Shown: piece after piece, positions 11,382 through 36,423 of the stretch
Layout of the letters: the number at the start of each line of letters is the position of its first letter
How positions within the stretch are numbered: the first letter of the stretch is position 1
Assembly: GCA_048213135.1 (NCBI GenBank)
Contig: PS015442.1
Span: forward strand, 14,194-78,193
Length of the DNA: 64,000 nt
Direction of reading: 5' to 3'
Origin: Reclinomonas americana ATCC 50394
Taxonomy: Eukaryota
Made by a program: the position numbers and the translations under genes
The notes under the pieces: model-generated
What the model was told of the DNA's origin: nothing
The model's database searches: none
What the model saw: only the letters and a program-made list of their open reading frames with translations

Positions 11382-12571
11382 TCAAATCATCGACGCAGAT
11401 CGCAGCATTGCTGGCGAAAACGACATGGGGGGCAGCGCTGCACCCGCCGACGACGACGACTCAGGAGGTGGCGGCTGCATGGTAACGCGGATGAGATCCT
11501 CATAGTCCCTTCTCAGCACCTCCTCTAGCAGATCCACCAGACGCGGGTTAGGCTCCAGCGTCGGCAACACCATTCCGCCCGCATCGTCGACCGGTGGTCC
11601 CGCCCGCACAAAGACCTCGGCTCGCAGCGCCACCCCAAACAGCTCCCGCAACTCACGTACCCGACGTGCAAATGGATCATCGCGCGTAGAAAACGGCACA
11701 AAGCGCTGTGGTGGCGACGGTGGTGGCAGCTGCGACGACTGCATGTATCTATTACCGGCAGCCGTGGGCGACGGGATCACCGGCGATAGTTGCTGCTGCA
11801 GCAGTCTCTGTTGCTGCTGATAGGCCGCCATGCCCGGCGGCAACGTGCGCATTGCCGGCGGCGCTGGCGGTGGCGGCAACGGAGGAGGCAACGGTGGCGT
11901 CTGCGACGTACTCCGTTGCCTTCTCATCGATCCGGCTGCAGTCGCGGTTGCGGCTGTAGGTGCGCTGGACATGGCCATGGTTGTTGTCGATGTTGTCGAT
12001 GTTGCAGTCAGGTTCGGTGGCAGACCGAGCAATGGTGGCACCGAGGCAGCAGCGGCATTGCCAACTGGTGCTGCAGCGGGCACGGGGCGGAGGAGCAGGG
12101 CCGCCGAGGTCGACATCATTGTTGTCGGCGATCCCGAACTCATCAATACGGGGGACGATGGGGAGGAATTGGAGCCGGCCTCGCTGCCGTCGGTGAGCGG
12201 TGTTGAGCATGCAGACTCGCCCGCCGCCAGCGGCAGGCTGCGGCGCGACCCAGGCGCCTGTGCACTTCTTTCTTCAGCAACAAGAGAAGAAGAGGGGAGA
12301 GGGCGAACATGGCCACACACGAAACGACAGGTGGTCCTAGCAAGCCCGACTTGCGCAAGGCGCGCTTGACCTTGGCACGTCGATTCTGGAACCACAGGTT
12401 GATCGACTTTTCCTCGCGGTTCAACACAGCCGCAATCCGCAGTCGCTGTGTCGAGGTGCAACGATAGCAATCAGCTGCACAATACAGGATTGCAATAAAC
12501 GAGTGACGGGAGACGCAACTTCTTCGCGCGACGGGTACGGCGTCGTGGCGAATACGTTCTCTAGCAGGCTC
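11382..12571 (-). CDS. Homeodomain protein with a Pro/Gln-rich C-terminal region; 5' exon(s) further upstream, unresolved
   Basis: Spliced sequence SLLENVFATTPYPSREE|RLRIAAVLNREEKSINLWFQNRRAKVKR contains the WFQNRRAK helix-3 signature. Confidence 0.9.
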
Positions 12572-14144
12572 TGCGAGAGGGAGAGGAAGAGGCAGGTGGG
12601 TACATGATGATTGGTTAAAAACATCACAGGCAGACTGTCTCAAAAAGAGAGTGTGCGTCGCGGCGAGTTGCCCCGGCACATGACCGATGCATTGGCACAA
12701 CGCAGCCGCCGCTTTTGGCCATAAGGAGGAAGACAGCGAGGAGATTGCGGCATCAACACAGTGTGCAATATCACGCGCAGTAAATCCCAAGGCAGTGCAG
12801 AACAGCATGGCACGCAGTGGCATGCACAGAGGCACAGTGGAGAAAAAATTTGTGATCAGACGTGGGTCGGGACATACCAAAGAGGTTGAAAAACGACAAT
12901 TGCAGCGCGTGCGTGTGCGGCAGACAATGACGCGATGTGCGTGGAGTCCAAGGAAGAAGCGACACACGACAAAAAAGGTAAAAGGTGTGTGTGGAAAGGA
13001 AACACAAATCGGACGGCAGAAAACAGAAAAAGATAAACGGCTGTGCGCTGTCGAGCTCCATATGGTGCAGAGGGAAAAGGGGAAAGAATTGCGATGTGAC
13101 AGCGTGTGTGCATATGCGCTAGGGGCAAACGCAACCGCACAGATGGTAACGGAAGCGATTGAGAGCGAAAATCCATCGAGTGTCAGCAAACAACATCGCG
13201 GGGCTGTTTGTGCCGAGTGATGAAACGAGCAAACAGGCGACTGGTTGCCGATTTCTTCTCACTCTCACTTGCTCTCTCTCTCTCTCACACACACACTCAC
13301 ACTCTCCGACGCGCACATACACACACACACACACTCACTGCCTTAACACGCCTCAATGCACTACACGGCAGCAGCCAGCAGCAACACAAAGGAAAACATG
13401 CAATGTGCAGCGGCAATGCAACCAATCAAAACGTGATTTTTCGGCCACTGCTCACACGCGCTCACTCTCTCTCCCTCTCTCACACACACTCATGCGCACT
13501 CACCTCCATGTCACCAAACACGGGACTGGCACTGGCGCGTCGCTGGTCGCGACGCGCAGCAACCTCCTTGCTCATCGGAGGAGCACACACACACACGCGT
13601 GTGGAGAAGAGTGTGGTGGGGTAGTGTGTCGCACACACACTGGCAGTGATGCTTTCAGGTGGTGGTGGTGGTGCTGACCACCTCACCAATAAAAGCGCGC
13701 TCTCTCGACACAGAGACTGAGAGCGAATGACGATAAGACGGACGGGACACACACGCACTCACCAGAGGTGACAAACGGTGATGTGTCCGCACTCACCACT
13801 CGTCGATATACTGTCCGCCACCTCCTCTTTCTCTTCCACTTCTCTCAGCTTGCGCAGAACGACAATCACGAACGAAAAAAGGAAAGGAAGAAAATATAAG
13901 GTCTGGTTGGTGCGGTGGGTGGTGGTGCGAAACACAACACTAGCGCGCAGAGTGCGTGAGACTTGCTTCTTCGTGCGCCTCGCCCCCTCTGTCTCCTTGC
14001 CCGTGCTCAAACTCACGTGCACAGTCTGTTCTCTCGTGTTCGGGTTCGAGTGTGCGACAATGGTTTCCCTGTGAGGAGATTCAAATGAGATGCGGCATAC
14101 GCAGTCTGCTCTTTCACGTGCATGTCTCAAACGGGTGGACACAT

Positions 14145-14430: not shown

Positions 14431-17400
14431 TCATTTTATCGAGCCGGCCGTGCTGGCTCCCACGGCTTTGCGCATTGTGGCCATCCAGTCGAGCTTGACT
14501 GCCTCTTGCACGCAGCGCACCAGCAACGATTGGTTGCTGTGCCGCGTGACCACCATGAAATAGTGCAGTGCATCTTGGCCGCGACCCTCCGCGCCCATGT
14601 CGCGCACCTCCAGCACGTCCGCCAACGGAATGCTGCGTCGCAGGTCGCGCTTGTTGGGCTTGAAGTAGCGCAGCACGCTTGCCTGTGTGCGATAAATAGA
14701 ATATGTGCATGAAAAATGGGCAAAGAGAAAACACGGACATGCAGACATCGTGGCCAAGATCTGACAAACCTCCAGCAAAAAGTAACGCACTCTCCAGTTC
14801 TTCCACACACGACCCTGTTTCTCCAGGAGGCCCACCTTGATCACCCTGTTGCGCGCATGCTCTGGCATATTCGGTGGCAGTTGATCAGTGGCAATCGGGA
14901 CAACTGCCGCCGCGGTGGGGGTCGTTGCAGCTGGCGCTGCAGGCACAGTACTGGGCACTTGCGGTGCTAGTGACCGTGCTGTCATTGTCGCCGGCCGTGC
15001 CGCACTCCGCAGCTCCATGGCCTCCTGCTCCAGTGCCGCGTAGCGTGTCAACAAATCTCGATATCTCTGCTTCTCGGCCTCCATCAGCCCGCGCACTCGT
15101 CGCATGCAGCGAAACACGTCGTCTTCCACCCGCGCTCTGCATACAGAGCGGGTCAGAGAGAGCGAGTGCGCACGCACACACATATACGCGTGAAGACTAG
15201 TCTCTCAAAGTACCGCTTGGCATCGGCGTCGTCTTGCATGTGCAGACCAATGTCGTGGTTGGCGTGGCCGATCAACTCGCGCAGTCCCTGCAGCACGTGA
15301 TCGCGGTACTGGAACACGGGCGATGCCAGTGGTTCTTGCACGCGCTGGAGGAGGGAACAGCAGATGAATGGAGAAGGGAAGAGAAGTGAAGAAGCGGGGA
15401 GTGCACGCACCAGTCGGCGGTACATGTCGTCGGGTGCCGATCGAGTCGGCAGCTCATGGTCGTCCACTCGCGAGATTTCGTCCCCGCCGAGCGCCTCCCC
15501 GCGCAGCAATGCGTCGGCCTCCCACACTGGCGTCTGCGTACCGACATCCACCGGCCGCTGTTCGCGTCGTAGGAGCTCCATCAGCGGATTGCCGGCCACA
15601 AAGAACGCCGGTGGGCGCTCTGGATCCGCAGACACCTGAAACGACACGCCACGTCGACGAGCCTTAACAGTTTGCTCGTCGAGTGGCATCCCACGCATGC
15701 TCTGCGGTCGTGAGTTGCTGATGCGTACGTGACGCCGACTGCTGGCACCCGACACCAGCGACGACACTGGTGCAGCGGAATCGACGGCTTCGCCTCCGGT
15801 ACCCGCCTCGCCTTTCGCCTGCTCGTCTTGATCGGTGTTCACCGTCGCGGGCGCCGCCTGTCGAAGCACAGAAACACACACTCAGCACAAGCTGTCACGT
15901 AGCAATCGTTCTGTGTTTTTCGACGACGCAACTTCCTCGACGACATCGTGCACGCCACTGCTCTGCTCCCCCTCCACCTCCCCCTCCCTCTCCTCCTTCT
16001 TTTCCCCCTCCTCCTCCTCTTCCTCCTCGTCGCCCGACGACGACGACATCAGCTCATCGTCGAGAAAGCCGCCAAGCTCGGCCGCCAAGTCGCGCCCGAC
16101 ATCACCCGACAGCGACGGATCGGGTTCCGCAAACTCGGGGTAGTCATCGAGCAGCGAGTGCGGTAATCTGCCGCTGAACTGTGTCGTCGGCCACCATCAC
16201 ACTTCCCGTGAGTGGGAGGAAGGAGGCACCGCAGAGAGAGACAGCAACGAAACTCTTGCAACTCGAGCCAGGTACTGATTGGCCGAGAGCGTTCGCTGCA
16301 AGGCCTCCGCGTTCGAGGCATCCAGCTCCGCGTCGAGCGCCATCCCTCCATCTCCGTGCAGCACCTCGTCCCGCGACACACGCCGATGCATGCTCGGAGG
16401 CCGACTCGCCGCAAACAGTTGCTGCCTGAGTGTGCCACACGAATCAGACNNNNNNNNNNNNNNNNNNNNNNNNNNNNNNNNNNNNNNNNNNNNNNNNNNN
16501 NNNNNNNNNNNNNNNNNNNNNNNNNNNNNNNNNNNNNNNNNNNNNNNNNNNNNNNNNNNNNNNNNNNNNNNNNNNNNNNNNNNNNNNNNNNNNNNNNNNN
16601 NNNNNNNNNNNNNNNNNNNNNNNNNNNNNNNNNNNNNNNNNNNNNNNNNNNNNNNNNNNNNNNNNNNNNNNNNNNNNNNNNNNNNNNNNNNNNNNNNNNN
16701 NNNNNNNNNNNNNNNNNNNNNNNNNNNNNNNNNNNNNNNNNNNNNNNNNNNNNNNNNNNNNNNNNNNNNNNNNNNNNNNNNNNNNNNNNNNNNNNNNNNN
16801 NNNNNNNNNNNNNNNNNNNNNNNNNNNNNNNNNNNNNNNNNNNNNNNNNNNNNNNNNNNNNNNNNNNNNNNNNNNNNNNNNNNNNNNNNNNNNNNNNNNN
16901 NNNNNNNNNNNNNNNNNNNNNNNNNNNNNNNNNNNNNNNNNNNNNNNNNNNNNNNNNNNNNNNNNNNNNNNNNNNNNNNNNNNNNNNNNNNNATTGTGTG
17001 CACCCTTGCGAGAGCGCAGGCAGGCCTGTACGCGACTTTTCGAGCAGGGTGATGCGTGCGTGAGCGCCCTCCAGCAGCTCCTGCAGCTGCAACACCGTGT
17101 TGACCATCACATGGCCGTCGCGCACGAGGATCACATCGGCGAGTGTCTGCTCGGCGACTGTGAGGAAGTCTTCGTCGTCGTTGTCCTCGACGAAGCTCGC
17201 TGGGCTGCTGCTGCGTCCCATCGGCGAGGGTGCACGCAGTGTCGACTGAGCACAGGCGAGTGAGTGAGCGTGTGTGTGCGTGAGAGAGAGTGAGAGAGAA
17301 TGCATGCAAGACGTGCATTGCCACGCCGAGTGCTGTGGACTGGCACTGCGCCGCCGTTGACCGTCAGCAGAAAGGCTCCACTCGCCGCCTGCAAGCGCAC

Positions 17401-17458
17401 ATATGAGCAGAGGTGTGTCTTTGTGTGCGTGTGTGAGGAAAGGGGGACGACGTGCCAT
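14431..17458 (-). CDS. Coiled-coil plus C-terminal PH-domain protein; spans an N-gap, start tentative
   Basis: IKVGLLEKQGRVWKNWRVRYFLLE|ASVLRYFK...SIPLADV...LDWMATMRKA is a PH domain. It is preceded by a coiled coil and acidic tracts. Confidence 0.75.
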
Positions 17459-17509
17459 CGGAAGAAGCGTGCGCGACAACAAAAACGATTGGTTGTGACT
17501 GTTTCACTG

Positions 17510-19581
17510 TCAGTACTCGCGGTCCCAGTCGGCTTCATACAACAGGTTCTCCACCAAGTGCTCCGAGGCTGGGCTGGTGACATCGGGGGCCTGTGAGAGT
17601 TCGCGTCGGAGCCATCGTTTGCAGTTTTCCTCAAACAGCTCGACCACATCTGGTAACGCAAAGTTAGTTGTCGTCGTCTGGCGCACTTGTCGTGCTGGCT
17701 CTCTCACCTCGGGTTCGCGTCGGTGCCGCCACGTGCGGTGTAATGTACGCGTTGCGGCGCGTCCACAGTGGATGCGAGCTGGGCAGTGGTTCTTCGGGGA
17801 ACACGTCGAGCACGGCGGCGCCGAGCCAGCCGCTGTCGAGTGCACGCAGGAGCGTGTCCAGGTCGATCACGTCGCCGCGGCCGACGTTGATGAACACGCA
17901 GCCTCGCTTGCAGTCCGACAGCACGCTACCGGCCAGCAGATGTCGTGTGCTGCTGGTGCTCGGCATCACATTCACAATGTAGTCGCACCCGCTCAGGAAG
18001 CTCGTCAGCTGCGTCCGTGTAAACGTAATGTCCACGTGTCGCAGTGGCCGGTGTGATTGCACAAAGCCCCACACCTGCACCGATGGGGATTCAGCAGTCG
18101 GCTCACGACGAAGTTGAATTGTGTGAGCTGATGCGCGACAAACCTCGGCGCGGAACTGCTTGAGTGCAGCACACACGCACTGGCCAATGTCTCCACCGGC
18201 ACCCATGACGCCAATTATTAGCGACGACACGGGTCGTGTGTGAGTAAAGTCCTCCGGCTGCCACCTGGATTGCAGCTGCGCGTCGCGCATCGACAGCAAT
18301 CGTCGTTCCATCGACAGCACATACATCAGCACGTATTCTGCCATGGCCGGTCCAAAGACGCCACCGAGTCGAGTCAGCACGAATCGCTGCAGGGTGCGAT
18401 CCTCCTCTACGAGATAGAAAAAAAGAGGAGTGAGTTACTCGTGTTTTTCCCTTTCTTCTCTAGCGCAGACTTTGGCGGTCACGCAACGCTGCTTCATGTC
18501 GCCCACTTTGGCCGCCAGCACGGCCAGTTCCTCGGCCAGCGCCTACTCACATCATCAGCATATCGCTGACACGGTGCGCCACAGATCTTGCCGTCACACT
18601 CACCTCACTCTGCTCGCGCAGCGGTCTCGTCATCTCCAGCATGAGTGAAAACGACACAAACGCCGACAACCACTTGTACAGCACTCCACACGCCTTGCTC
18701 GCCCGATTCACGCTCTCGTACGAGTATTGTGAGCAGTTCAGGAGCCGCGCATTGACGAAATCGCGCACTGGCCGACGCATGCGAAGACCCGTGTTTTGGT
18801 CCGTCAGGCGCTGGAAAAAGTCGGGTCTCCGCACCATTCTGTGCACGCACAAATAATTGTCACGCAACATCATCATGTTTTCTTCATCACACAACACACA
18901 CCTTCTTGTCTCCTCCCAGTCCACCGGCGTACTGAAATCATTCATCACGGCGCACACGGCCAGCAAGCACGCACGCACAGCCTCCGGGGGATTCGTCAAT
19001 GAGCGCGACTCGTCGTGATATCTCTTCTCAATGGATGCCAGCAGTGCCATGGCTTCCTCCACCGCCGGCGCAGTGGCCGACAGCGCCTCCTCCAACTTGG
19101 CCTTGCGTGCCTCCAAGTCGGCAGTGCGTGTCGCCAACTCGGCCAGTAGCTCATTCTTCCTGCGTGTCAACTCGGTCAGTTGCTCTCGATCCGCACGGTG
19201 TTGCTGCATCAGGGCATCGACACCGGCCGTGGTGGCCTGGAACCACTGCGCGACAGTACATGTCATTACAAAAGCAAGGCCAATGATGTGTACACGTGCC
19301 TGTGCGGACCAACCTTGAGATTCGACGCATGCTTCATCAGTGGCGCCAGTCGTGCAGGACTGCCAACGGCAATCTCCACCGTCCTCAGCTTCTCCGCCGC
19401 CGAGCTCTCCTCTGCCGCGGCGAACGTGAGAGGCAAGAACGAAAAAAGGCAAAGAATAATATGCTTGCAGCGCACCTTCATCCGCGGCAATCTCCACGAA
19501 ATCACAGTAGGGGCACACTTCGCGCAAGCTCTCCACCAGACCCGTCAGCTTGCCACTCAGCACGGCCACTCGCTTCCGCAT
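17510..19581 (-). CDS. D-2-hydroxyacid dehydrogenase (GhrA-like glyoxylate/hydroxypyruvate reductase family) with an inserted dynein stalk and microtubule-binding domain; 8 exons, 535 aa
   Basis: Exons 19581-19476, 19411-19314, 19245-18902, 18838-18604, 18542-18488, 18406-18144, 18074-17708 and 17649-17510. All 7 introns are GT-AG and the total of 1608 nt is in frame. Enzyme motifs: NLKWFQATTAGVD, LTRLGGVFGPAMAEY, GVMGAGGDIG, FINVGRG, LDVFPEEPL, ITPHVAA. Insert motifs: NPPEAVR, YESVNRASKACGVLYKW. Confidence 0.9.
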
Positions 19582-19655
19582 GGTGGAAAACTCTGCATAC
19601 CGCGGTCGAAGGGTAAGAGAGGGAGAGAGGAAGCAATGCTTGAAGACTCGCGGCA

Positions 19656-21872
19656 TCACCAACCGTGCGACAGCTTGATGAATGCAAGGTCCGAGTTGCG
19701 TCGATCTTGCAGAATCGCCGCCAGCTGCCTCTCCTCCTCCTGCTCACTGTGCAGCAGGAGCGACTCGTGTGCCCGTTGCCGCTCGCGAACCTGCTGCTGC
19801 AGAAACTGGCCACTCTGTGGTCGCCGAAGCGACCCATTCACCTTCTCGCGCGCCACAATCGGACCCTCCTGCAACAGCGTGGCCAACAGGCGCGCACCCG
19901 GTGTCGACGGCGGCGACGATGACGGCGACAGCTGCATCCGCTCAATGCCACTTACTTCACCACTCCCGCCCCCGCCACTGCCACCACCACCACCACCGGT
20001 GCCCTTCCATCCCGCCGTCCCCGGTCGCGCCTTTTGCATACCCATGACCGTGCCAACAGCATTAGCAGGGCCGACGGCCGCCGGAGGAGCCGTGGTGGTG
20101 GTCGTTGTCGAAGAGAGTAGGAGAGCAGATGCACTGCTGACACTGGTACCCAGCAACGCTTCGCGCAAACTGCATCGCAGTGCCGCCAGTGATTCCGCAG
20201 ACGGTGGTGGTGGCGGTGATGGTGTGCGTGAGCGCGACTCGAGTGGTGGAGGCAGTATGTCGTCCACACCAGACAACGATCCGGCAGCCGACAAAGCACG
20301 CTCATCCAACGATGGACGAGTGAAGCCGATAGCAGTCTGAGCACGCCGAGGCGGCGGCTGCACTCTGCCACTGTTGTCCCTCCGTGACTCCTTCTCCTCC
20401 CGCAGCCAGCGATACTGCTCCAACACAACACCAGGTTTCACATTGTCTGCCGATGCCATCACCACACCACCACCGTCGCCATCGTCGTCAACACCGTCGT
20501 CACCGCCACTGTAGTCATCGCCGTAGTCATCATCGTCACGCTCACCGCCCACCACCACATCATCATCGTCCTCGGTTGCGCCGGCAAAGCGGCCCCCACT
20601 GCGAGTCTGCGACAGAAACGCACCACGATCGTCACTGTTGGTGCGCCGCGACTGCGTCGAAGAAGAGGGCTTGGCGCCGGTGCCGCGCACCAACGCCGAG
20701 CTGGCACTGCGTGTCTTCAACAGTCGACTCTGTCGCTCCACTGCTGCCGCCGACATGCGCTCCTCGCCCTGTGCAGCTCCTGCTGCTCCGGTGGCGGCGA
20801 CAGCTGATCGACTCGCACTGGAGGTCGACGGACGTCGTCCACGGTCGCCGGTCGAAGACGCGGAACGCGCCTGTCGCGTGCTCTTGGTGGAGTTGGCCAT
20901 CAGAGGCACGGTGCGCGCACTCGACCGCCGTGATGATGACGACGAGTCACCACCACCACCACCGCCACCACCATAGCCACCATCGCCGACAGCATCGACT
21001 CCTTCAGCGGCGTGATTTGGAAACGGCAACGGCTGCGGTCCGCTTGCCGCTGCTGCTGCCGTTGCTGCACTGCCGCCCTTCCATGCCGCGTGCGCAGTGG
21101 CCCACGAATTCTGCTTGGACGACAGCCGCGGTGCATTGCGCAGTGCGTCGCTCGCGGTGTGGCCGAGTGCTGAACTCGAGCGCGGCGGCAGTGGCAACGA
21201 TGGTTCGGGCGACACTGCGCCGGGCCGCGTTAATGATGCAGACTGCGCCAAAGAAACACAGTAAGGAACGAATGCCACACTCGCACGACACAGCAGCGGC
21301 GGCACACACGCACCCGCGGCGCCGGTCGCACGTGCGAACCCAAGATCATGCCCGACGCGAGTCGACCGCGCACCTCGTCGTCGGCGGCGCCGTCGTCATC
21401 ATCATCGTCGCCGAGGCCCAACCGCTTTGCCGAATCACCCAGTGCGTTGCGCATCGCAGCGGCGATCTGTGCCGACCCCAGTACCTGCGACGGCGAAGGG
21501 CGGCGTCCACCAGGCGCCGTTCGCGAACGATGCAGCTCGTGTGTCAGTCGACGAGCCGGTGGCGCTGCGCAGCACACGAGTGAGAACAGATGGTTGAGAG
21601 AAAGAGAGAGGGAGGGAGAGAGGAAGAGGCAGCGATCGCAAACCTTCGACGCCCTCTCCATACACCGCCGCGACGCGCTGCAAATCGGTTCCACCTATAC
21701 ACCATGTTAACAATCACTCCTCCTTTCCTCTCCCTCTCCCTCTCCCTCTCTCACGCAGACACATACCCGCGGCGGTGGTGTTGGCGCGTTGCAAGGCATG
21801 CGAGTGAGCGCGCTTAAGCACGGGTTCGCGCTTGTGTTGCAACAGCATCGACGTGGCCTCTTCCACACTCAT
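19656..21872 (-). CDS. Low-complexity Ser/Ala/Gly/Arg-rich hypothetical protein, spliced
   Basis: Long open frame at 19656-21305 plus frame-compatible upstream exons starting MSVEEATSMLLQHK; no family recognised. Confidence 0.55.
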
Positions 21873-22277
21873 TGGCGGCTCCTCCAGTCGTTGCTGATGT
21901 TGATGGTGATGAACATGTGCGCTGGCCGCACGGATCGCCGAGGCGCCTCTGTGGAGCGAATGATTGTGTGAGATGAGGCGAAACGAACGAGAGGGAGCGA
22001 GCGATCGTAAACGGGCGCGCAGAACTCTTTGACGAGAATGGTGCGTGCGGGGACTTGGCGGTGGCGAGGCGCAAGTGTGCCTGGTGAGAAGAGGTGCCCG
22101 GCCGATGTCGAGTGCTTTCCGGCACGGAGCGGGAAGCGTGCATACAGGTCGTCGCCCGCGCTCATCAGACAAATCCTATCCAATCAGAAAATGGCCGTTT
22201 CGTCGCTCGGAAATCTGGGAGACTTTCACTAAAAAAAACTTGACGCGCTATCGGTATGCGTAGGTGTGTATCAGTGT

Positions 22278-24256
22278 CTACTCTCTGCGCGGTGCTGCGG
22301 CGTTTGCGACTACAGCTCCTCGTTCTTCCTCGTGCGCTTCCTCGATGTGTCGACCGGTGTGGTTCTCCTGCACCAATGGTGTGAGCAAGAGGGCAAACCA
22401 TCTTGNNNNNNNNNNNNNNNNNNNNNNNNNNNNNNNNNNNNNNNNNNNNNNNNNNNNNNNNNNNNNNNNNNNNNNNNNNNNNNNNNNNNNNNNNNNNNNN
22501 NNNNNNNNNNNNNNNNNNNNNNNNNNNNNNNNNNNNNNNNNNNNNNNNNNNNNNNNNNNNNNNNNNNNNNNNNNNNNNNNNNNNNNNNNNNNNNNNNNNN
22601 NNNNNNNNNNNNNNNNNNNNNNNNNNNNNNNNNNNNNNNNNNNNNNNNNNNNNNNNNNNNNNNNNNNNNNNNNNNNNNNNNNNNNNNNNNNNNNNNNNNN
22701 NNNNNNNNNNNNNNNNNNNNNNNNNNNNNNNNNNNNNNNNNNNNNNNNNNNNNNNNNNNNNNNNNNNNNNNNNNNNNNNNNNNNNNNNNNNNNNNNNNNN
22801 NNNNNNNNNNNNNNNNNNNNNNNNNNNNNNNNNNNNNNNNNNNNNNNNNNNNNNNNNNNNNNNNNNNNNNNNNNNNNNNNNNNNNNNNNNNNNNNNNNNN
22901 NNNNNNNNNNNNNNNNNNNNNNNNNNNNNNNNNNNNNNNNNNNNNNNNNNNNNNNNNNNNNNNNNNNNNNNNNNNNNNNNNNNNNNNNNNNNNNNNNNNN
23001 NNNNNNNNNNNNNNNNNNNNNNNNNNNNNNNNNNNNNNNNNNNNNNNNNNNNNNNNNNNNNNNNNCGACGCGGGTGAACGTCTCCAGGTCTGTGTATGTG
23101 CGTACGTGAGGGCCACTTTTCAACAACAAGCAGCGCAGGAGGGTGGACGACGCAACGCTCCGGCTTTGCAGGGTCAATGTACGCCACCACACGGGCATCG
23201 GCGACCGCACGGCCAAACGCAATCTCGTCGTCCTCGTCCTTGATCTCGTACACTGGCTGTCCAGCACCCAGCGCCTGGAAGTAATCGACGGCCCTATCAA
23301 CACACGCAGAGTCAGTACCTCCACACACATTGCTTCCTTTGCCACGACTCGCTCTCAACTTTTGCGGCTGGAACCAGTCCATCTGCCACGGACGCGCCAC
23401 ACCCTCACTGTCACGCGCACACACGTGAGACAAAGGACCAACAGCAGATAGAGGCGACGACTGCGGCGCACCGAACGACCCACACGGACGGGATCATCAT
23501 CTTTTGGTGGGAGATCGGACCAAAGAAGGGGCTGGCCTGGTTGAAGGCCACCATGGTCTCGTTGTACTTGGGCACATCGATCATCGCACAGCGGTACACT
23601 GCGTGCTCGATCTGCAGCTGGCGGATCATATCCTCGCGCGTGCGGCAAATGTCGCACAGCTTGCGATCACTCGCCGTACTGCACGAAAATGCAGGCGAGT
23701 TGTCAGCGGAAATATCAATACGCAGAGTCTGTGCTCGACGAAACACACATACGCAGAGAGACAGAGTGACGGAGAGAGTAAGAGAGAGAGAAAGAGCGTG
23801 TGTGTGTTTTCGGTGGTTTGGTTTGCGCGCCATTGCCACGTGCATGCGTCACATACGCAAACAGAAAGCAACGAGTGGAGCAAGACGCAACAGCAAGAGA
23901 ATGCCGACATCCTGCGGGCCCTTCGGCTTCATCCACTTCTTCAGCGCCGACTCGGTCAGCGATCGCAGCGGAGGGAACTTGTTCAAGTGCTCTGCAAAAC
24001 ACAACAGAAGTCAGTTGCACATACGCACACAAGAGAGAGAGAGAGAGGAGACAACGCGCGCGCGCTCTTTCTCTTCACTGTCAGGCATACCAATGAACTG
24101 CTCATCGTCTTGCTCCGCGGGCTTCACCTGATCCTCGTTATCCTGCTGCGGTGTGACAGGCACCGAGTGGCGCGGAGTGCGCTGCGCCTCGGCCACCAAC
24201 GCCACGGCAAGCAGCACCAGCAGCAACACAGAGAGAGACCACCGTGTCGACGTCAT
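22278..24256 (-). CDS. Signal-peptide-bearing hypothetical protein, possibly an ER thioredoxin-fold protein; spans an N-gap
   Basis: Signal peptide MTSTRWSLSVLLLVLLAVALVAEA. Contains a CDIC motif, and the segment VYEIKDEDDEIAFGRAVADARVVAY resembles a PDI b-domain start (weak). Confidence 0.55.
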
Positions 24257-26909: not shown

Positions 26910-29718
26910 TTAGTCGACATCCTCCATCACATTGTCGACCGCCGCCACCGGCTCCAACGGCGGTGCGCCCGAGCCGCTGCCGGCCGAGGCCATTGGCACA
27001 TCATCGTCGAGTGACAGGCCGAGCTTGATCATGCGGTAGATGCGTGAGGCGTACGAGGTCGGCTCCTCCAGGCTGAAGCCCGAGGTGATCAGGGCCGTGT
27101 CGAACAGCAGGAAGATGAGGTCGCGCACGGTCTTGTCGCCCTTGTCGGCGGTGGCCTTGTTGCGCAGCTCCGCAATGATCGGGTGGTGCGGGTTGATCTC
27201 CAGCGTCTTCTTCGACACCATGTAGGTGGCCATGGTGTTGTCGCGCAGCGCCTGCGCCTTCATGATGCGCTCCATGTTCGCCGTCCAGCCGTACTGGCCA
27301 GTCACCAACACCGCCGGTGAGTCGACAATGCGGTCCGACAGCTTGACCTTCTCCACGCGCTCTCCGAGGATCTCTGCGCGAGGTTGACAAAAGCGAGAGA
27401 GGTGGTGAGTCGTCAACACCAAGAGTGAGAAAAGAGAGTGAGCAAGTAGAGACAAACCCTTCATGGTGGTGCAGAGGCTCTCGAAGCTGGCCTTCTCCTC
27501 CTCCTTGCGCGCCTTCTCCTCCTCAGAGTCCTCGAACTCCAGGCCCTCCTTGGTGACGCAGACCAGCTTGTGGCCCTCGTACTCCTTGAGCTGCTGGACG
27601 CAGTACTCGTCAATCGGCTCGGTCATGAAAAGCACCTCGTAGTTGCGGGCGCGGCAAGCCTCAATGAACGGCGACTTCTCCACGGCCTTCTTGCTCTCGC
27701 CCGTGATGAAGTAGATGTCCTTCTGGCCCTCCGGCATGCGGGTCACGTAGTCGGCCAGCGAGGTCACCTGATCCTCCGACGCCGTCGAGTAGTAGCGCAG
27801 CAGCTCGGCCAGCTTCTTGCGGTTGTCGGCGTCCTCGTGGATGCCGAGCTTGATGTTCTTCGAGAACTGCTCATAGAACTTCTCGTAGTCCTCCTTGTTC
27901 TCCGAAACTGTGTGCAAGCAAAGGCGGGAAGATGAGCAAGAAGAACAAGAAAGAATTGGAAANNNNNNNNNNNNNNNNNNNNNNNNNNNNNNNNNNNNNN
28001 NNNNNNNNNNNNNNNNNNNNNNNNNNNNNNNNNNNNNNNNNNNNNNNNNNNNNNNNNNNNNNNNNNNNNNNNNNNNNNNNNNNNNNNNNNNNNNNNNNNN
28101 NNNNNNNNNNNNNNNNNNNNNNNNNNNNNNNNNNNNNNNNNNNNNNNNNNNNNNNNNNNNNNNNNNNNNNNNNNNNNNNNNNNNNNNNNNNNNNNNNNNN
28201 NNNNNNNNNNNNNNNNNNNNNNNNNNNNNNNNNNNNNNNNNNNNNNNNNNNNNNNNNNNNNNNNNNNNNNNNNNNNNNNNNNNNNNNNNNNNNNNNNNNN
28301 NNNNNNNNNNNNNNNNNNNNNNNNNNNNNNNNNNNNNNNNNNNNNNNNNNNNNNNNNNNNNNNNNNNNNNNNNNNNNNNNNNNNNNNNNNNNNNNNNNNN
28401 NNNNNNNNNNNNNNNNNNNNNNNNNNNNNNNNNNNNNNNNNNNNNNNNNNNNNNNNNNNNNNNNNNNNNNNNNNNNNNNNNNNNNNNNNNNNNNNNNNNN
28501 NNNNNNNNNNNNNNNNNNNNNNNNNNNNNNNNNNNNNNNNNNNNNNNNNNNNNNNNNNNNNNNNNNNNNNNNNNNNNNNNNNNNNNNNNNNNNNNNNNNN
28601 NNNNNNNNNNNNNNNNNNNNNNNNNNNNNNNNNNNNNNNNNNNNNNNNNNNNNNNNNNNNNNNNNNNNNNNNNNNNNNGGAGGAGGTGAGCACGACTGAA
28701 AATAATTCAACTTCGAAGCGAGTGACGCAACATCCTCAATGGTCAGCGTCTTGGCCTCCTTGTTGGGGATGAGGCGGATGCGCAGCTCCGGCTCGCCAGC
28801 CAGCACCGACGGGTCGGTCAGGCTCATGTAGCGGATCTTGTCAATGGCCTGCGATGGGAGAGTGCTGTCGTCAGCAACTAGTACTAAAAATAACCCCAGG
28901 AAGAAGAAAGCGTGACAGGAGGCAGCCACTCGAGATGTGAGGAGAGTGCATGACACAGAGGTGAGAGACGGAGAAAGAGACAAGGAAACGGGACGAGGAA
29001 GAATGCGACGAGTGGCGGAAATGTGCACCGCCATCGACAACACACGCCACGTCAGCAAACTGCACCAGTCGCATCGACGAGGGGTGGGATGCTGCATACA
29101 CAAGAGAGGCAAAGAGACACACGAGTGTGCACGACGACAAGGCTTCTGCATGCATGGGTGGGCGGAAGACAACAGCGCGAGGAGGCGTGCATGTGCAGCT
29201 CGGGCGGAAATGTGCAACCGGACCCTNNNNNNNNNNNNNNNNNNNNNNNNNNNNNNNNNNNNNNNNNNNNNNNNNNNNNNNNNNNNNNNNNNNNNNNNNN
29301 NNNNNNNNNNNNNNNNNNNNNNNNNNNNNNNNNNNNNNNNNNNNNNNNNNNNNNNNNNNNNNNNNNNNNNNNNNNNNNNNNNNNNNNNNNNNNNNNNNNN
29401 NNNNNNNNNNNNNNNNNNNNNNNNNNNNNNNNNNNNNNNNNNNNNNNNNNNNNNNNNNNNNNNNNNNNNNNNNNNNNNNNNNNNNNNNNNNNNNNNNNNN
29501 NNNNNNNNNNNNNNNNNNNNNNNNNNNNNNNNNNNNNNNNNNNNNNNNNNNNNNNNNNNNNNNNNNNNNNNNNNNNNNNNNNNNNNNNNNNNNNNNNNNN
29601 NNNNNNNNNNNNNNNNNNNNNNNNNNNNNNNNNNNNNNTTGTTGCGGATATGTAAACACCCAACACCCCCCACACACACCTGCTGGATCTCAGCCTGGAA
29701 CTCAAATGTCTCCGACAT
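26910..29718 (-). CDS. HSP90: Cytosolic heat shock protein 90; interrupted by two N-gaps
   Basis: [57 protein letters not shown] and C-terminal MEDVD. Confidence 0.98.
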
Positions 29719-29992
29719 GGTTTGTTGATTGGGATAGTAGCGTTGGGGGTTGAAGGAAAGGTTGAGTTTGCGAACTCTCCGCGAGAAAGTGCAAAAGTGT
29801 TAACTGCCGGGTTTGACGGGTCCTGCCGGGTTTTGTTGGCGTCATCCTTCGTGTTTCGGCCGGCGCCGCTCTGCTGGCCACCGGAGGGCGGGGGAGCGTG
29901 GCGGGGGAGGTGGGGGAGATCTGTATCCTTGTCGGCTGCGGCGAGAAGATCGAAGAGGAGCTCGGCAGTTGCATGTCCAACGCGATCATTTT

Positions 29993-30047
29993 TGACGTCA
30001 CGCGGTGACGTAATCGACGGATGACGCAAGCATGGGGGATGACGTGA
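29993..30047. promoter_or_regulatory. Cluster of four TGACG (CRE/ATF-like) motifs upstream of HSP90
   Basis: TGACGTCA at 29993, TGACGTAA at 30006, TGACGCAA at 30022 and TGACGTGA at 30040. Confidence 0.4.
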
Positions 30048-30298
30048 GCGCCGAGAATACTCTTGGCCGCGACCCGCGAGGAAAGCGGACGGCCTCTGGA
30101 TCGGTGTGACTCAGTTCCAGCCGAGATATCGAGTCGATGCTCAATGAAGGGGCGATCGGCCGCGGGCCTGCCAAAGCAGCAAGCGCAGTGCACCCGATGA
30201 GTGCAAGCCGGCGAGCTGCACAGCCTTATACAAGTCGATAACGATCCCTTCCTGCACGTCCCGAACTGTCAAGAGTTCCTGCGATCACGATCGCGATC

Positions 30299-30510
30299 GA
30301 CATGCAAGTTGTCTCTCTCCTCCTCTCAGCCCTCCTGTTCCTTCCTGCCCTCACCCACTGTGTTCCACTGTCCACGACCGTGATCGCAAACACCGACAGT
30401 CGATTGCGATTGATGACATGCAGGAAGTTGTCTCTCACCCCCTTCCTGCCCTCACCCACAACGCTGTACACTGTGCTGCACCACAGCTGTCCACGACCGC
30501 GATCGTGATT
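30299..30510. repeat. Imperfect tandem duplication, period about 115-120 bp
   Basis: The blocks gacatgca..agttgtctctc, ccttcctgccctcaccca and ctgtccacgaccg(t/c)gatcg each occur twice in the same order. Confidence 0.7.
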
Positions 30511-30602
30511 ATCACTTGTCTCCCTCTCTTCTCCACCCCCTTCTCTCTCTCCCCCCCCCCTGCACCCGTCCACACGCCTCACAATCTTCACTCACCACCA
30601 CC

Positions 30603-31260
30603 TCATCTCTCGCGATCGCGATCATCGCCCGCCACATGCACGTGAGCATGCGCGTGCGCGGCCGTCGGAGCACTCCGACTATTCATCCACGACAGAATCG
30701 CCGTCCACACCACACTCATCGCACCCACAAACACCACCGGCGCGCTGCCACCGCGCGGAATGTAGCGAAAGTTGATGACATTGGCGAGGGGCCAAAAGGC
30801 GGTGCCCAGCACAAACGCCGTCGGCACATTTCGTTTCGCATGCTCCACCGCCTCGTGCGCCGTGCCGCCCTCCAGTAACCGAATGGCGGGGAAGAACATG
30901 CACAAGTACACCGGAAACATGGTCACCTGCCCCGTCAGGCTCTTTCGCAGCGCCCCGCGAAAGCCGCCCGGTTGCGCCGGAACCCACCGATCCAACGCCC
31001 GAAATGCGTCTGTGTTCACTGTCATCATCTCAGCACAGCACGCACACACAGCGAAAGAAGGCGCAACAGTAAAAGTAGGGCCCGTGCATGCAAGCACCAA
31101 TGAGCGCGAATCGCCCCACGCGCTCCCAGTCCCACTCCACACGCGCGAGACCATGCGCCTCTGCAGTCACTGCTTGGCACAGCATGTCGCCGCCACTGAG
31201 CATCACGCTCGAGGAGAGCGACGAGCGCAGGAGCGGATGGCGGAGCAAAAAGCCGAGCAT
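30603..31260 (-). CDS. Mpv17/PMP22 family membrane protein, 2 exons
   Basis: GDMLCQ, WDWERVGRFALIG..HGPYFY|YAFRALD, FWPLANVINFRYIP and WTAILSW. Confidence 0.92.
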
Positions 31261-31432
31261 CTATAAGAGGGGTAAACAGTTCGCAAGCGACAACTGCACC
31301 CCAGCGCAACGATAATAAGGGGTACGGTACCCCAAGAAAATGGGATTTCAGGCAACCACCAGGGACAGACGCTGCGCGCTCGCAGTGACATCTGTCCATT
31401 CGTTTTCCCGCCGGTTGTTATTGAGCGTGTTC

Positions 31433-34400
31433 ATGTCGCTCTTCCAGGTGTGTGTCTCTCTCTGTGTCTCTCTCTCTCTTGCTCTCTCTCTAAGGTGTTG
31501 TGCAGGCGCGTGAGTGGTGGGGCACGAATGCCGGTCACGATGAGGAGTTTGGTGACGGCTGTCTGTGTGTGGCCAATGTCGACAATGATGCAAGTGGTGC
31601 CGGTGAGTGAGCGCACACACGCGCGCACACATGTGTGTGAGAGAGGGAGTGTGTGAGAGTGNNNNNNNNNNNNNNNNNNNNNNNNNNNNNNNNNNNNNNN
31701 NNNNNNNNNNNNNNNNNNNNNNNNNNNNNNNNNNNNNNNNNNNNNNNNNNNNNNNNNNNNNNNNNNNNNNNNNNNNNNNNNNNNNNNNNNNNNNNNNNNN
31801 NNNNNNNNNNNNNNNNNNNNNNNNNNNNNNNNNNNNNNNNNNNNNNNNNNNNNNNNNNNNNNNNNNNNNNNNNNNNNNNNNNNNNNNNNNNNNNNNNNNN
31901 NNNNNNNNNNNNNNNNNNNNNNNNNNNNNNNNNNNNNNNNNNNNNNNNNNNNNNNNNNNNNNNNNNNNNNNNNNNNNNNNNNNNNNNNNNNNNNNNNNNN
32001 NNNNNNNNNNNNNNNNNNNNNNNNNNNNNNNNNNNNNNNNNNNNNNNNNNNNNNNNNNNNNNNNNNNNNCCTTCAACACCAACATGGAGGTGCAAGCGTA
32101 CAAGTTTCACGTGCTGGCCACGGCCTCGGGCTCTGCCGAACGGAAACGCGAGTCATCTGGTGCGCTTTTGCTTTTTTGTATTCATTTCACCTTCCCCTTT
32201 TTCTGAAATGCCCGCACCGTCAGCTCCCTCGGGCAGTGGAGCGAGTGGCTCGGGCGACGGCTCGTCCTCCTCCTCGTCGGGTCCCTCTGCGGCCGCCACA
32301 GGACCCGGCTCTGACGGCAAGCAGCTGCAGGCGGAGTGGTCGCTGAATGTCGGCGAGCACATTTACGAGATCCGCACGGGCAAGTACTCGAAGAGCCTCG
32401 CTGCGCAGCAGGTCGACATTATCTTGCTCGGCGAGCGTTCGCTCTTCTGCGTAAAGGAGAATGGCGCCATCCGGCAACAGCGGCGGTTCGACTTTTTCCC
32501 CAGCTGCTGCATCACGTACGACGTGACGCGTGAAGGTGCGACTCCAAATCTTTGCGGTTGTCGTGTGCCCTTGTATTCATGCATGTGTGCTTGTTTTGTC
32601 GCTGCAGCGGGTGGTGCCAGTGCCGCAGCAGCACTGCAGAATCTGCTGGTTGGCACACACAGCAGCTCGATGGTGGTGTACCGCGATCCACAAGTGGTGT
32701 GGTCAGCAAAACTGACGTGCACCCCGATTTCACTGCGTGTGGCAGCGTTCGGGTGCGTGCGCGCTCTCTCCTTCTCCCCTGCACGCCCGTGTAGGTGTTG
32801 CTTCCGCTCACGGGGCATTGTGTGCAGTGGTCTGCGCGGCCTGGTCGTGTCACTCAACGAACAAGGGCGCGTGCTGGTGACGTACATGGGTACGGATCCA
32901 GCATCGAACCCCGTATCGGTGGGCGAGGGCAAAGAGATGGACTACGCCGAGATGGATGCGGAACACAAGCGTTTGCAGGCGCACATTCGAGAAGCGCAAG
33001 CGAGTTTCGTTTCCCGCAGGCCGCCATTCGTGTCCTTTCTCCATCTCACCCACCTCCTCGCACACAGCTGGCAAAATTGCACGGAGGGAGGGTGTGACAC
33101 TAGATGTGCAAGTGCCGTCAAATTGCGACACGCGAATTCCGCCAGGTGAGCACACAACCCCTACGTCGCCCCGTGTGTTGTGGTGGTGGCGTCGGTGCTT
33201 AACGTGCGATTGCGTGCAGAAATGCTCGAGGAGCTAGAGGCCGATCTGTCGGATCACCTGGGAGGGCGGCCGCGAGTCAAAGTCGCCAATGTGCGTCTGT
33301 ACATCAACTACACTGGAAGCGAAGAGCTCAGCAGTCTCATGCTGAACGTGAGACCACCACCTGGTGTGCGTGTCTCGGAGGAATCGATCACCATCCCATC
33401 GCTCAGTTGCGTGTCAACCCTTCTCTCTGTATCTGTTCTTGTGCGCTGGTGGTGGTGGTGGTGGCCGTTGCCGACTATTTTCTTCCGCTCTGCTGGTGGC
33501 GCAGGTGGATCGGGTCGTGCAAGGACGCCGCTGATGGTGCCGCTGGTGTTCCTGTGCGACGGCACCAAACTGCCCGTGTCGCTGGATGCCGAGGTGGTGT
33601 GCACGTACACGCTGCCGTCGGGTGAGCCGCTGTGTGCGCGTGCGGCCTTCTCGCTTCCGTTCAGCCTGGTGGGTTCGGTGGTGCCGCCCGTCAAGAATCC
33701 CGATTTCAAGGTCCGACTGCTGGCATGCCGATGTGTGTACGTACGTGTTCTAACGGAAGAGACGACTGCAGGTCACCTTTGACACCAATAAGCCGCCGGT
33801 GCTCTTGTCGACCCTGTTCGAGGACGTGATTGCGAGCAGCTCGGAGGATGCGCGCTCCGTCGTCACACCCAATGTCTTCACATTCCAGTACCTAAATCAG
33901 GCCGATGCCACCATCCTGGTGTCGAAGAAAGCCGGTGTGTGTATGTGTGCGCGACTGTCTCGAGGTTGCCTCGCTCCACTCACCCCACTCGCCTGCACGC
34001 AGATTCGGGACGATATCGAGTGCAGGCCGGCAGTTTCGAGGCTCTGTGGCTGCTGAGTCACGAGCTGGTGCGCCGTCTGGAGCAAGATGCNNNNNNNNNN
34101 NNNNNNNNNNNNNNNNNNNNNNNNNNNNNNNNNNNNNNNNNNNNNNNNNNNNNNNNNNNNNNNNNNNNNNNNNNNNNNNNNNNNNNNNNNNNNNNNNNNN
34201 NNNNNNNNNNNNNNNNNNNNNNNNNNNNNNNNNNNNNNNNNNNNNNNNNNNNNNNNNNNNNNNNNNTCCTGCGTGAGTGCCTGTCACCGATTGTCAACGA
34301 CTGCGGAGACCAGGGCTGGGAGGAGGTCACCGATGCCGCCATGACCCACTTGCTGCGCACGGCATTGGCACGGAGCGCCAAGGAGAGTTCCAGTGTGCCG

Positions 34401-34717
34401 GCACCACTGGCCATGCCTCCCGACACGCACAAGCTGAAGGTGAGCCGAGAGAACAAGTTGGAGCGGCCGTGGATGTGCAGTCGATACTCACTCCCCGACA
34501 GAAACACATTGCTCTGGTATGCGAGCGTCTGTCCAAGGGCATGCGATTGGTCAAGGATGCGCAAAAGAGCAGCAGCAGCAGTGGCGGAGGAGGAGGAGGA
34601 GCAAGTGGCAGTGGTGGAGGTGGCGATGGAGAGTCCTCCAGTGCTGTGGGCACCAGCGAGGGCGGCTCGAGAGGTGGCAGCCGACCGCGAAGCAGCAGCG
34701 GTGGTGGTCGGAAGTGA
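31433..34717 (+). CDS. BBS9: BBSome subunit BBS9/PTHB1; multi-exon with two N-gaps
   Basis: MSLFQ|AREWW...EEFGDGCLCVANVDN, LLGERSLFC, VVWSAKL, YMGTDP, ILVSKKA|GRYRVQA and QGWEEVTDAAMTHLLRTALAR. Confidence 0.95.
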
Positions 34718-34796
34718 GTGTTCATCTCCTTCTCCATTCTCGTCGTCCTGTCGGTGTGTCCCTCTTTCGTTGCACTTTCGTAAAAAGCAAGAAAAA

Positions 34797-36423
34797 ATGT
34801 CGTCGAGCGAAAGTGAAACGCGTTTGGTATTGATGGCTGCCTTTTGTCGCGTGCATGAATGCACTCGGCCAGACTTGCTGCGCGAGTTGGCCGTTTGTGC
34901 GGAGACAGTGCATGAGGCGTGGTTCAGCAGTGAGCAAGTTGCGCGAGAGGGTCGGTCGATGCGGACTCTGACGAGCTCACTTCAATTGGGGTCGCAGAAG
35001 TTCGCCCTCGTGCCGCACTTGTTCACGGTGTTGTCGCATGTGCGGGCGGATGTGCAGCAGTATGAGGCCGTGTTTCAGGATCTTCTAGGCGACGATCCGA
35101 CGAGGTTGGTGATGCATACGGGGAAAACTGTGTATTGTTCGTGTGCCTGTTTTTGACGGTGTGCACAGACCGGATCATGTTCTGCTTTGCACCATCGAGT
35201 TCTTGTATCACCAGCATCGCGAGTCGCTGGGCGAGTGGCTCACAACAATGCAGCGCTTCAGTGGCGGGTCAATGTCATTCGAGTTGCGCACGCTCGTTGC
35301 GAGAATGTCGATTAATATTGACAAATACCGACTTCGAACAGAATGCTGCTGCTGTGTGCCCTCCACCTGCTGAGCGACCGATCGCCGATGCTTGCGGCGC
35401 TGGAGGGAGATGACGATGACGAGGAGGCGCACATGCATGTGCTTGCCGGCGACGATACAGTGGTCCGTGAGTTCGTGGACCTGGTGGAGCAGACGGTGGT
35501 GCCGGAGGCGGCTGCCGATCGGATGGACGCCGCCTTGCGGCAGCTGGCGTACCGCACCAGTGCGATGTTTGCGGCGCATGGTGTGCACGCGGAAATGCAC
35601 TTGCAGTTGCTGTGCGATTCGCTGGACCACGACGAGAGCGCCGACAACAGAGCGACACTGGTCATGGCGCTGGCCGACGTGGTCAGAGTCATCGGCCACC
35701 GCCAGTGCGGTCTGAGTGACGCGGTGATGGAGCGCGCCCTCGATATTCTCTTTGCGTACACCGACGGACCCGTGCACGAGCTGCAGGTGGTGGCCACTGC
35801 GGTCTTTTGCCGCCTGCTGCTGTTGGAGTGCGCCGTCATTGACGAGCGACTCGAGGTGTCACTCGTCAAGTTGACCGACAAGCTCCTCAACGAAATCGAC
35901 GAGGCGCGACAGCGACGAACGGTCGCCGGCGCCGACAGTGGCCACCAACAGCGAGATCCCTCGGGCACCGACGCTCCCGAGCTGGCGGGCATTGCCGGCG
36001 CGTTCTTTGACGAATACACTGGCGCGGAGCACGACAGGCACCAAGAGGCGGTGGCCAACACAGTGCTGAAATGCATTGTCGACGGAGTGGATCGCGGGTC
36101 GCTCGTGGTCACCGCCGACGGCGTGCTCTGTCAGTCTCGTTGCGTCGACGAGAGAGGGAGAGCGTACAAGTTCCACCAGCGACTCACGCCCTCGCACAGC
36201 CACTCCCGTTGCACTCGCCGCAAACGAGCATCAGCCGCTGACACGCGTGCAGTGCCTCCTGCGGTACCTGCAACGCCAGTACCTCACGCAGGTGGCCAAT
36301 GCCGTGCACGAAAACCTGCTGCTCGAATTCGGCCTGAGCACCCACACAGTGTGCGTCCGCCGCCTGCTCGACGATCTGGCCACACGCAACAACAGCAAGC
36401 CACTGGGCGCGGCGGGTCAATGA
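34797..36423 (+). CDS. Hypothetical alpha-helical (ARM/HEAT-like) protein, spliced
   Basis: Four long Leu-rich coding frames joinable by GT-AG introns; no family recognised. Confidence 0.6.

Follow-up and report, generated by a model that had tools for sequence, protein, structure and literature searches.

A dynein-1-type stalk and microtubule-binding domain within a GhrA-like dehydrogenase of Reclinomonas americana: a candidate motor-less microtubule tether

The stalk and the microtubule-binding domain (MTBD) are regarded as a hallmark of dynein heavy chains. In the dehydrogenase superfamily that concerns us here, CtBP and plant ANGUSTIFOLIA are NAD(H)-dependent regulators, and ANGUSTIFOLIA affects the arrangement of cortical microtubules; to our knowledge neither of them has a dynein-derived domain, and any link of theirs to microtubules is indirect. 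Engineered chimeras of seryl-tRNA synthetase and the dynein MTBD bind microtubules without a motor, according to the available text of PMC4298687. In this study we analysed a stretch of 64,000 nucleotides (nt) from Reclinomonas americana ATCC 50394 (GenBank assembly GCA_048213135.1, contig PS015442.1, positions 14,194 to 78,193; hereafter the window), in which a gene on the minus strand at 17510-19581 is predicted to encode a D-2-hydroxyacid dehydrogenase with a dynein-like stalk and MTBD inside it. A first-pass annotation of this DNA had described a spliced protein of 535 amino acids (aa), a D-2-hydroxyacid dehydrogenase interrupted by an insert of about 205 aa that follows the stalk and MTBD of cytoplasmic dynein-1, with both prolines that flank the MTBD and with no motor sequence nearby, and each of these points was reproduced in our analysis. 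Judged from the predicted protein and its relatives, a dehydrogenase with an internal dynein stalk and MTBD is a real and conserved architecture, and because the same insert occurs at the same site in the relatives, including a Physarum transcript, we take the fusion not to be an artefact.

Alignment and profile matches indicate that a GhrA-like D-2-hydroxyacid dehydrogenase makes up residues 1-80, its first half, and about 284-535, its second half. Pfam 2-Hacid_dh_C (PF02826) matched the open reading frame (ORF) at 17664-18434 on the minus strand with an E value of 1.4e-39 (135.7 bits, cut-off 25.1). Residues 1-80, which end in WFQATTAGVDAL, aligned with the N-terminal part of the substrate-binding domain of insert-less GhrA-like relatives; the enzyme restarts at about residue 284 with FVLTRLGGVFGPAMAEY and goes on into the NAD(P) domain and the C-terminal tail, and both residues 1-80 and residues 484-535 were colinear with the insert-less relatives. 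At the insert site these relatives have a linker of 10-15 residues, whereas the window protein has about 200 residues there. The nearest relatives were GhrA-like, namely a Branchiostoma 'glyoxylate/hydroxypyruvate reductase A-like' protein, an amoebozoan transcript, oomycete proteins and many further sequences, and the enzyme part of the window protein was 42% identical to P0167. R433 (in VGRGD), E462 (in DVFPEEP) and H481 (in TPHV) fell in the Arg, Glu and His columns conserved among the GhrA-like relatives, which we take to be the catalytic Arg-Glu-His set. From its sequence the enzyme is probably active.

The region between the two halves (residues ~81-283) is, on the evidence of alignments and profiles, a short coiled coil, an MTBD and a second coiled coil of the cytoplasmic dynein-1 type. 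Coiled coil 1 (19069..19209, minus strand, residues 81-127) runs up to the first conserved proline, P128, and the MTBD proper (18622..19068, minus strand, residues 128-255) runs from P128 to P255 and is split by intron 3 (18839-18901); the two coiled-coil arms are unequal, with about 47 residues in coiled coil 1 and about 28 in coiled coil 2. The alignment of the insert with eight dynein-1 stalks was nearly gapless: the dynein prolines had aligned counterparts in P128 and P255, one at each stalk-MTBD junction, and the motifs in common were the EPAV-like stretch at P128, NPP, DW, R..DF, VNRASKACG..W and P255-LRE. Identity of the insert to a dynein-1 stalk reached 33% (P0043, the row most like the window), and among the family copies the window insert was the most dynein-like in H5-H6.

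Searches with the separate exons gave the same picture. Against the PDB, exon 3 alone (18902..19245, minus strand) matched the mouse cytoplasmic dynein-1 stalk 5ayh by phmmer with an E value of 4.7e-8 and a list dominated by dyneins, and exon 4 alone (18604..18838, minus strand) matched the yeast dynein MTBD 6kjo at 2e-15, all 19 sequences listed at E<=10 being dyneins or dynein chimeras. A profile made only from 67 full-length dynein heavy chains scored 139.5 bits on the spliced window protein (residues 79-279, E 7e-39 at Z=1e6) and 92-171 bits on the four other full family members, and it matched none of 77 insert-less dehydrogenases; the insert spans about 190-200 positions of the 297-position local stalk profile. 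When the unspliced 398-aa ORF was compared by phmmer with 1.84 billion representatives, 327 proteins were found at E<=0.001 and 66 at E<=1e-10, with none at E<=1e-30. Pfam MT was present in 23 of 25 of these matches that were scanned, the two without it being the family members P0010 and P0075, and a profile of five family inserts matched 148 of the 150 phmmer proteins listed. A word search for proteins of near-equal length with the same 398-aa ORF returned a single match, the dynein fragment P0001. As to the class of the donor, the two dyneins checked were both cytoplasmic dynein-1: P0043 scored 2502 bits as this class against about 1090 for other classes, and P0046 4366 bits against about 1486. 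With these two heavy chains as queries, tblastn matched only 18604-19209 in the 64-kb window (which holds 3,816 N in 8 gaps). The identity of a dynein heavy chain was considered for the gene and rejected, since this search found none of the six AAA+ modules, the linker or the tail in the window and dehydrogenase sequence lies on both flanks of the stalk.

The dynein character of the insert also held up in structure modelling. The AlphaFold2 input was the 218-aa translation of 18601-19254 on the minus strand, read through intron 3, and the model had a mean predicted local distance difference test (pLDDT) score of 88.2 and a predicted template modelling (pTM) score of 0.77. It showed one long helix, which corresponds to coiled coil 1, then several short helices bundled together and a helix running back, and the pLDDT was lowest (58-75) exactly across the 21 residues encoded by the intron. 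Foldseek found 21 PDB matches at E<=0.001 for this model, and among the matches listed all were dynein stalk or MTBD structures, with cytoplasmic dynein-1 first and 8ptk, 5ayh, 3err, 3wuq, 6rzb and 6kjn leading; the target-normalised TM-score to the isolated MTBD structures 6rzb, 6kjn and 6kio was 0.75-0.76. The full-length model of the Physarum relative P0003 (pLDDT 88.3, pTM 0.71) had a 61-residue helix (118-178), six short helices and return helices (274-316) placed between dehydrogenase strands. With this whole model the best PDB matches were the GhrA-type enzymes 3hg7, 5vg6, 4weq and 6p35, and among the matches listed there were only dehydrogenases and no dynein arm.

The insert was found at the identical site of the enzyme, between the same two enzyme motifs, in P0003, P0010, P0075/P0165 and P0136/P0166. 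P0003 is a transcript-derived ORF of 587 aa from Physarum polycephalum (EukProt) with both Pfam MT (E 8.8e-10) and 2-Hacid_dh_C. The others are continuous called proteins from three environmental lineages: P0010 has 570 aa on a 2,183-bp contig, P0075 and P0165 have 508 and 524 aa, and P0136/P0166, of 550 aa, has Pfam MT (E 3.9e-9) together with 2-Hacid_dh_C. In addition, P0028, a genomic read-through of 216 aa, carries the insert at the same site; it is closer to the window, 49% identical in the best stretch, with an apparent intron at the matching place before WFQ.TTAGVDA. Compared with the window, the inserts of the relatives were 21-29% identical and their C-terminal enzyme parts 32-43%, from which we regard the architecture as old.

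Wider searches did not enlarge the family. A word search with the family alignment (A1) gave 65 proteins, which besides P0003 were all of 293-529 aa with 41-52% query coverage, and because of this short length and coverage we consider them dehydrogenases that lack the insert; this search did not recover the known members P0010, P0165 and P0136. In a metagenome scan with A1 by a C-terminal PLW-motif pattern, 80 loci were kept, and tblastn with five insert queries found the insert in none of the 80. The ESM Atlas, queried with the whole of P0003 and with its residues 100-360, yielded nothing but clusters of dehydrogenases, at 0.80-0.81, or had no match that could be used. Two candidates were dropped. 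P0152 had a weak match to the dehydrogenase profile and proved to be a dynein fragment. P0022, a 532-aa called protein on a 1,773-bp contig with a dynein stalk (Pfam MT E 3.6e-23) and a Peptidase_M78/IrrE-like domain, was set aside as a probable chimeric contig; alternatively it could be another motor-less carrier of a stalk.

The exon model was built from the three-frame translation and the junction sequences, with the introns predicted from the genomic sequence, and this independent splice model of the minus strand at 17510-19581 arrived at a product of 535 aa. Exon 1 (19476..19581, with the ATG at 19581) encodes residues 1-35 and one further base, and with them the strand and helix that open the substrate-binding half; it was aligned with GhrA-like N-termini. 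Exon 2 (19314..19411, residues 36-68) continues the N-terminal enzyme half to ...HASNLK, and the oomycete protein P0004 aligned with 19373-19314 by tblastn. Exon 3 (residues 69-183) holds the enzyme motif that closes this half and then coiled coil 1 and the first MTBD helices with the NPP motif and DW, and exon 4 (residues 183-261) holds the second half of the MTBD with VNRASKACG..W and RPLREQ. Exon 5 (18488..18542, residues 262-279), whose 3' end is ambiguous, contains the bulk of coiled coil 2. Exon 6 (18144..18406) contains the end of the insert (~residue 283, nt 18396), followed by FVLTRLGGVFG, the cross-over helix and the dinucleotide loop G348-AGGDI-G354; exon 7 (17708..18074) completes the NAD(P)-binding domain and carries R433, E462 and H481; and exon 8 (17510..17649) returns to the substrate-binding domain at the C-terminus and ends with the stop codon TGA at 17510-17512. 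The seven predicted introns are of the GT-AG type and measure, in order, 64, 68, 63, 61, 81, 69 and 58 nt.

The first-pass annotation had placed the N-terminal junction inside exon 3, had let the C-terminal join depend on ordinary frame-restoring introns and had judged a gene-merging artefact unlikely, and our data agree with it on all of this, with one ambiguity at intron 5. AGVDAL passes directly into the coiled coil inside exon 3 in a single unbroken reading frame, and this exon is colinear with residues 108-297 of the Physarum P0003. The C-terminal junction depends on introns 4 and 5, and all three insert exons are in frame without a stop. Six of the introns are unambiguous; for intron 5 there are three possible in-frame donor/acceptor pairs, among which GTTGCG...TCGTAG was chosen, and the alternatives alter no more than 7 residues at the extreme end of the insert. 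The insert had a GC content at third codon positions (GC3) of 0.754 and the remaining coding sequence one of 0.739, the introns had a GC content of 0.41-0.55, and the gene lies within a gap-free piece of the scaffold (16993-22405).

Two side observations concern possible variants of the product. The hexamer GTGCGG at 19197, in exon 3 just past ...DALMQQH, shares its frame with the intron 5 acceptor (18406), and its use as a donor would yield an insert-less isoform of 340 aa with a linker of normal length; 2 of 6 GT sites near 19197 are in frame, and the fit may thus be due to chance. Upstream of the gene, a low-complexity ORF of 579 aa (19656-21395, minus strand) stops 75 nt before the ATG at 19581. 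A candidate GT-AG intron of 71 nt (19593-19663, minus strand) would link this ORF to exon 1 in frame without a stop. Its donor GTTGGT is the hexamer found also at intron 2, its acceptor is CAG, and a pyrimidine tract is present; in a trial, 1 of 6 GT/AG pairs was in frame. The protein may thus carry a long disordered N-terminal extension. Among the family members the N-terminal extensions differ. The shorter form that starts at 19581 is favoured because of the context of its ATG, CCACCATGC.

How the insert arose was examined with two kinds of trees. For the insert tree, 67 dyneins were used out of 148 matched rows, P0075, P0136, P0022 and the rows with <3,300 aa or <170 profile positions having been dropped. 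The five full inserts stood on one side of a branch and the 67 dyneins on the other, with a Shimodaira-Hasegawa-like approximate likelihood-ratio test (SH-aLRT) support of 85. This grouping may reflect long-branch attraction, as all of the inserts sit on long branches; they evolve several-fold faster than dynein MTBDs. An enzyme-only tree that holds the five carriers together was 3.78 log-likelihood units better than the free tree (approximately unbiased test, p-AU 0.603). The data are consistent with a single insertion event, and since the insertion site is identical this is the simplest reading.

By analogy with the engineered fusions, we favour with moderate confidence the view that the protein is a motor-less tether which places a GhrA-type reductase on microtubules. 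In what we read as an NAD(P)H-dependent GhrA-like 2-oxoacid reductase, the short surface linker from the AGVD loop to the next strand has been swapped for a dynein-1 hairpin, copied from a cytoplasmic dynein-1 heavy chain and made of the ~47-residue coiled coil 1, a six-helix MTBD and the ~28-residue coiled coil 2. As the two ends of an antiparallel hairpin meet, a stalk could replace a surface loop without disturbing the host fold. The tether would be static and ATP-free, with the arm holding the enzyme on microtubules much as in engineered fusions of the dynein MTBD to foreign coiled coils. The relatives of the enzyme are presumably dimers, and if the window protein is dimeric like them, it would have two arms per dimer. 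Microtubule binding, catalytic activity, the dimer state and the cellular place are properties that we infer. According to the available text of PMC4298687, the MTBD makes its interface with the microtubule through H1, H3 and H6, and the distal stalk and MTBD bind microtubules with high affinity when they are fused, in the alpha registry, to a coiled coil of foreign origin.

A number of our observations weigh against the tether or the gene model that it presupposes. The first-pass annotation had expected Pfam MT (PF12777) to match the spliced protein; on the unspliced window pieces this model reached 13.8 bits for exon 3 against a cut-off of 24 and gave nothing for exon 4. Within the family, P0165 (17.5 bits) fell below the cut-off and P0010 gave no match. 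Pairwise identity within the family was 21-29% in the insert as against 26-43% in the C-terminal enzyme part, and the end branches of the inserts were 2.7-7.2 long as against a dynein median of 0.47. The Arg of VNRAS is present in the window, P0010 and P0165 and absent in P0003 and P0136, and the residue numbering of tubulin contacts, as given in the available texts of PMC6629372 and PMC4298687, could not be transferred to the window. On the side of the enzyme, the dinucleotide loop G348-A-G-G-D-I-G354 is one residue longer than the GxGxxG of most relatives, a similar extra residue being found in P0010; the free enzyme-only tree scattered the five carriers among a group of 20 rows with 99% support and needed 4 changes of the insert label; and P0136 has Asn for His, has lost the Glu-bearing DVF..EP segment and has a changed VGRG motif, with the arm retained. 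P0136/P0166 is probably a pseudo-enzyme, and because the His and the DVF..EP segment are lost there, catalysis seems dispensable in some lineages, which hints that the arm rather than catalysis may be what is constant in the family. Furthermore, the family is rare, with six lineages found in total, and the introns are predictions from sequence with the donor of intron 5 unsettled. The long insert branches, the lower identity of the insert than of the enzyme part, the Arg missing from 2 of the 5 full members and the poor performance of Pfam MT on P0010 and P0165 are also what speaks for an arm that no longer binds microtubules and has been re-used for docking or oligomerisation with another partner, or serves as a mere spacer. 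We consider such a repurposed arm rather unlikely: every member keeps the motifs of the MTBD fold (NPP, the C-L-x-A helix, F-D and A-C-G-x-L-x-x-W) and most keep the flanking prolines, these fold motifs survive across lineages that are only 21-29% identical, and the window copy is the one most like dynein in H5-H6.

It is also conceivable that the arm does bind microtubules and takes part in a switch, in which the NAD(P)H or substrate state shifts the stalk helices and so the microtubule affinity, or microtubule binding alters catalysis. The registry signalling of the stalk would then be re-used on a second, unrelated nucleotide-binding engine, with the open or closed or the NADPH-bound state setting the registry. 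From coiled coil 2 the chain passes within about 10-15 residues into FVLTRLGGVFG, a strand and loop ahead of the cross-over helix that lies between the two enzyme domains; the arms differ in length, and the affinity of dynein depends on the stalk registry, as described in the available text of PMC4298687. Both ends of the insert sit on the same enzyme domain, so that domain closure need not shear the helices, and P0136 retains its arm despite a degenerate active site; we therefore regard the switch as improbable. If it were true, the protein would be a microtubule binder gated by the metabolic state, or an enzyme switched by microtubule contact, and a dead enzyme in lineages such as P0136 would persist purely as a sensor. 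Least probable of all is that the architecture comes from a chimeric assembly, a wrong gene model or a dynein fragment that lies in an intron and outside the mature protein. The C-terminal join does rest on two predicted introns, one of them with the weak donor GTTGCG, and the cryptic in-frame donor at 19197 could skip the insert, though its being in frame is at the level of chance. Such an origin is contradicted by the N-terminal junction in one exon and one frame, by insert exons that keep the frame without a stop, by the core enzyme strand that the skipping of exon 3 would remove, by the equal GC3 of both parts, by the lack of any gap within the gene and by colinear relatives, one of which is a transcript-derived ORF. 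The static tether remains the reading that we prefer.

In this family a dynein module has been lifted from its motor and kept in a small soluble enzyme across lineages at 21-43% identity. It is also a clean case of an enzyme loop that has taken in a hairpin domain. With about 535-590 aa the proteins should be expressible, and they could offer a natural system for how a short stalk sets MTBD affinity, which has so far been studied with engineered chimeras. They also point to a way, so far unstudied, in which metabolism of the glyoxylate/hydroxypyruvate type or of NADPH would be attached to microtubules. The first-pass annotation knew of no described protein with such an architecture, and this agrees with a full-text search, which found no paper on a dehydrogenase, or a comparable motor-less carrier, with a stalk or MTBD from dynein. 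The sequences, however, were already public with both Pfam domains precomputed, one database row already showing the two together. The novelty is in recognising and interpreting the architecture and not in the data.

Among the neighbouring genes, the ORF at 33792-35156 (plus strand) matched PTHB1/BBS9, a ciliary protein of the BBSome, with an E value of 5.6e-15, which suggests that the organism builds cilia or flagella; as this BBSome gene is in the same window, the link between metabolism and microtubules might possibly be found in cilia. The ORFs at 12143-13258 (minus strand), 14431-15204 (minus strand) and 46139-47125 (plus strand) matched a homeodomain, a PH domain and an NHL repeat. The GC content was 0.377 at 28001-32000 and 0.51-0.60 elsewhere in the window, and this dip may partly reflect the N runs at 27963-28678, 29227-29638 and 31662-32069.

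Compared with the known systems, the insert resembles the cytoplasmic dynein-1 stalk and MTBD (5ayh, 3wuq, 6rzb, 6kjn/6kjo, 3vkh) in its coiled coil 1, six-helix MTBD, coiled coil 2, prolines and motifs. It differs from dynein-1 in that the base of the stalk is a dehydrogenase loop and the coiled coil is shortened, with no AAA+ ring, linker or tail in the window. The host enzyme is similar to the GhrA-type reductases (6p35, 3kbo, 4weq, 3hg7, the Branchiostoma P0169 and the amoebozoan P0171) in being a two-domain enzyme with aligned Arg, Glu and His, and it has in common with them the frame WAGVD ... LTR.GG.FG..MAEY; in contrast to them it has the insert of about 200 residues in place of a linker of 10-15 residues and a dinucleotide loop with one more residue. 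The seryl-tRNA synthetase-MTBD chimeras (3err, 3j1t, 8fcy) are similar to the window protein in that an unrelated enzyme bears a dynein MTBD and a short piece of stalk. However, these chimeras are man-made grafts on an existing coiled-coil arm, whereas the window protein has the whole hairpin as a natural insertion into a loop, conserved across lineages.

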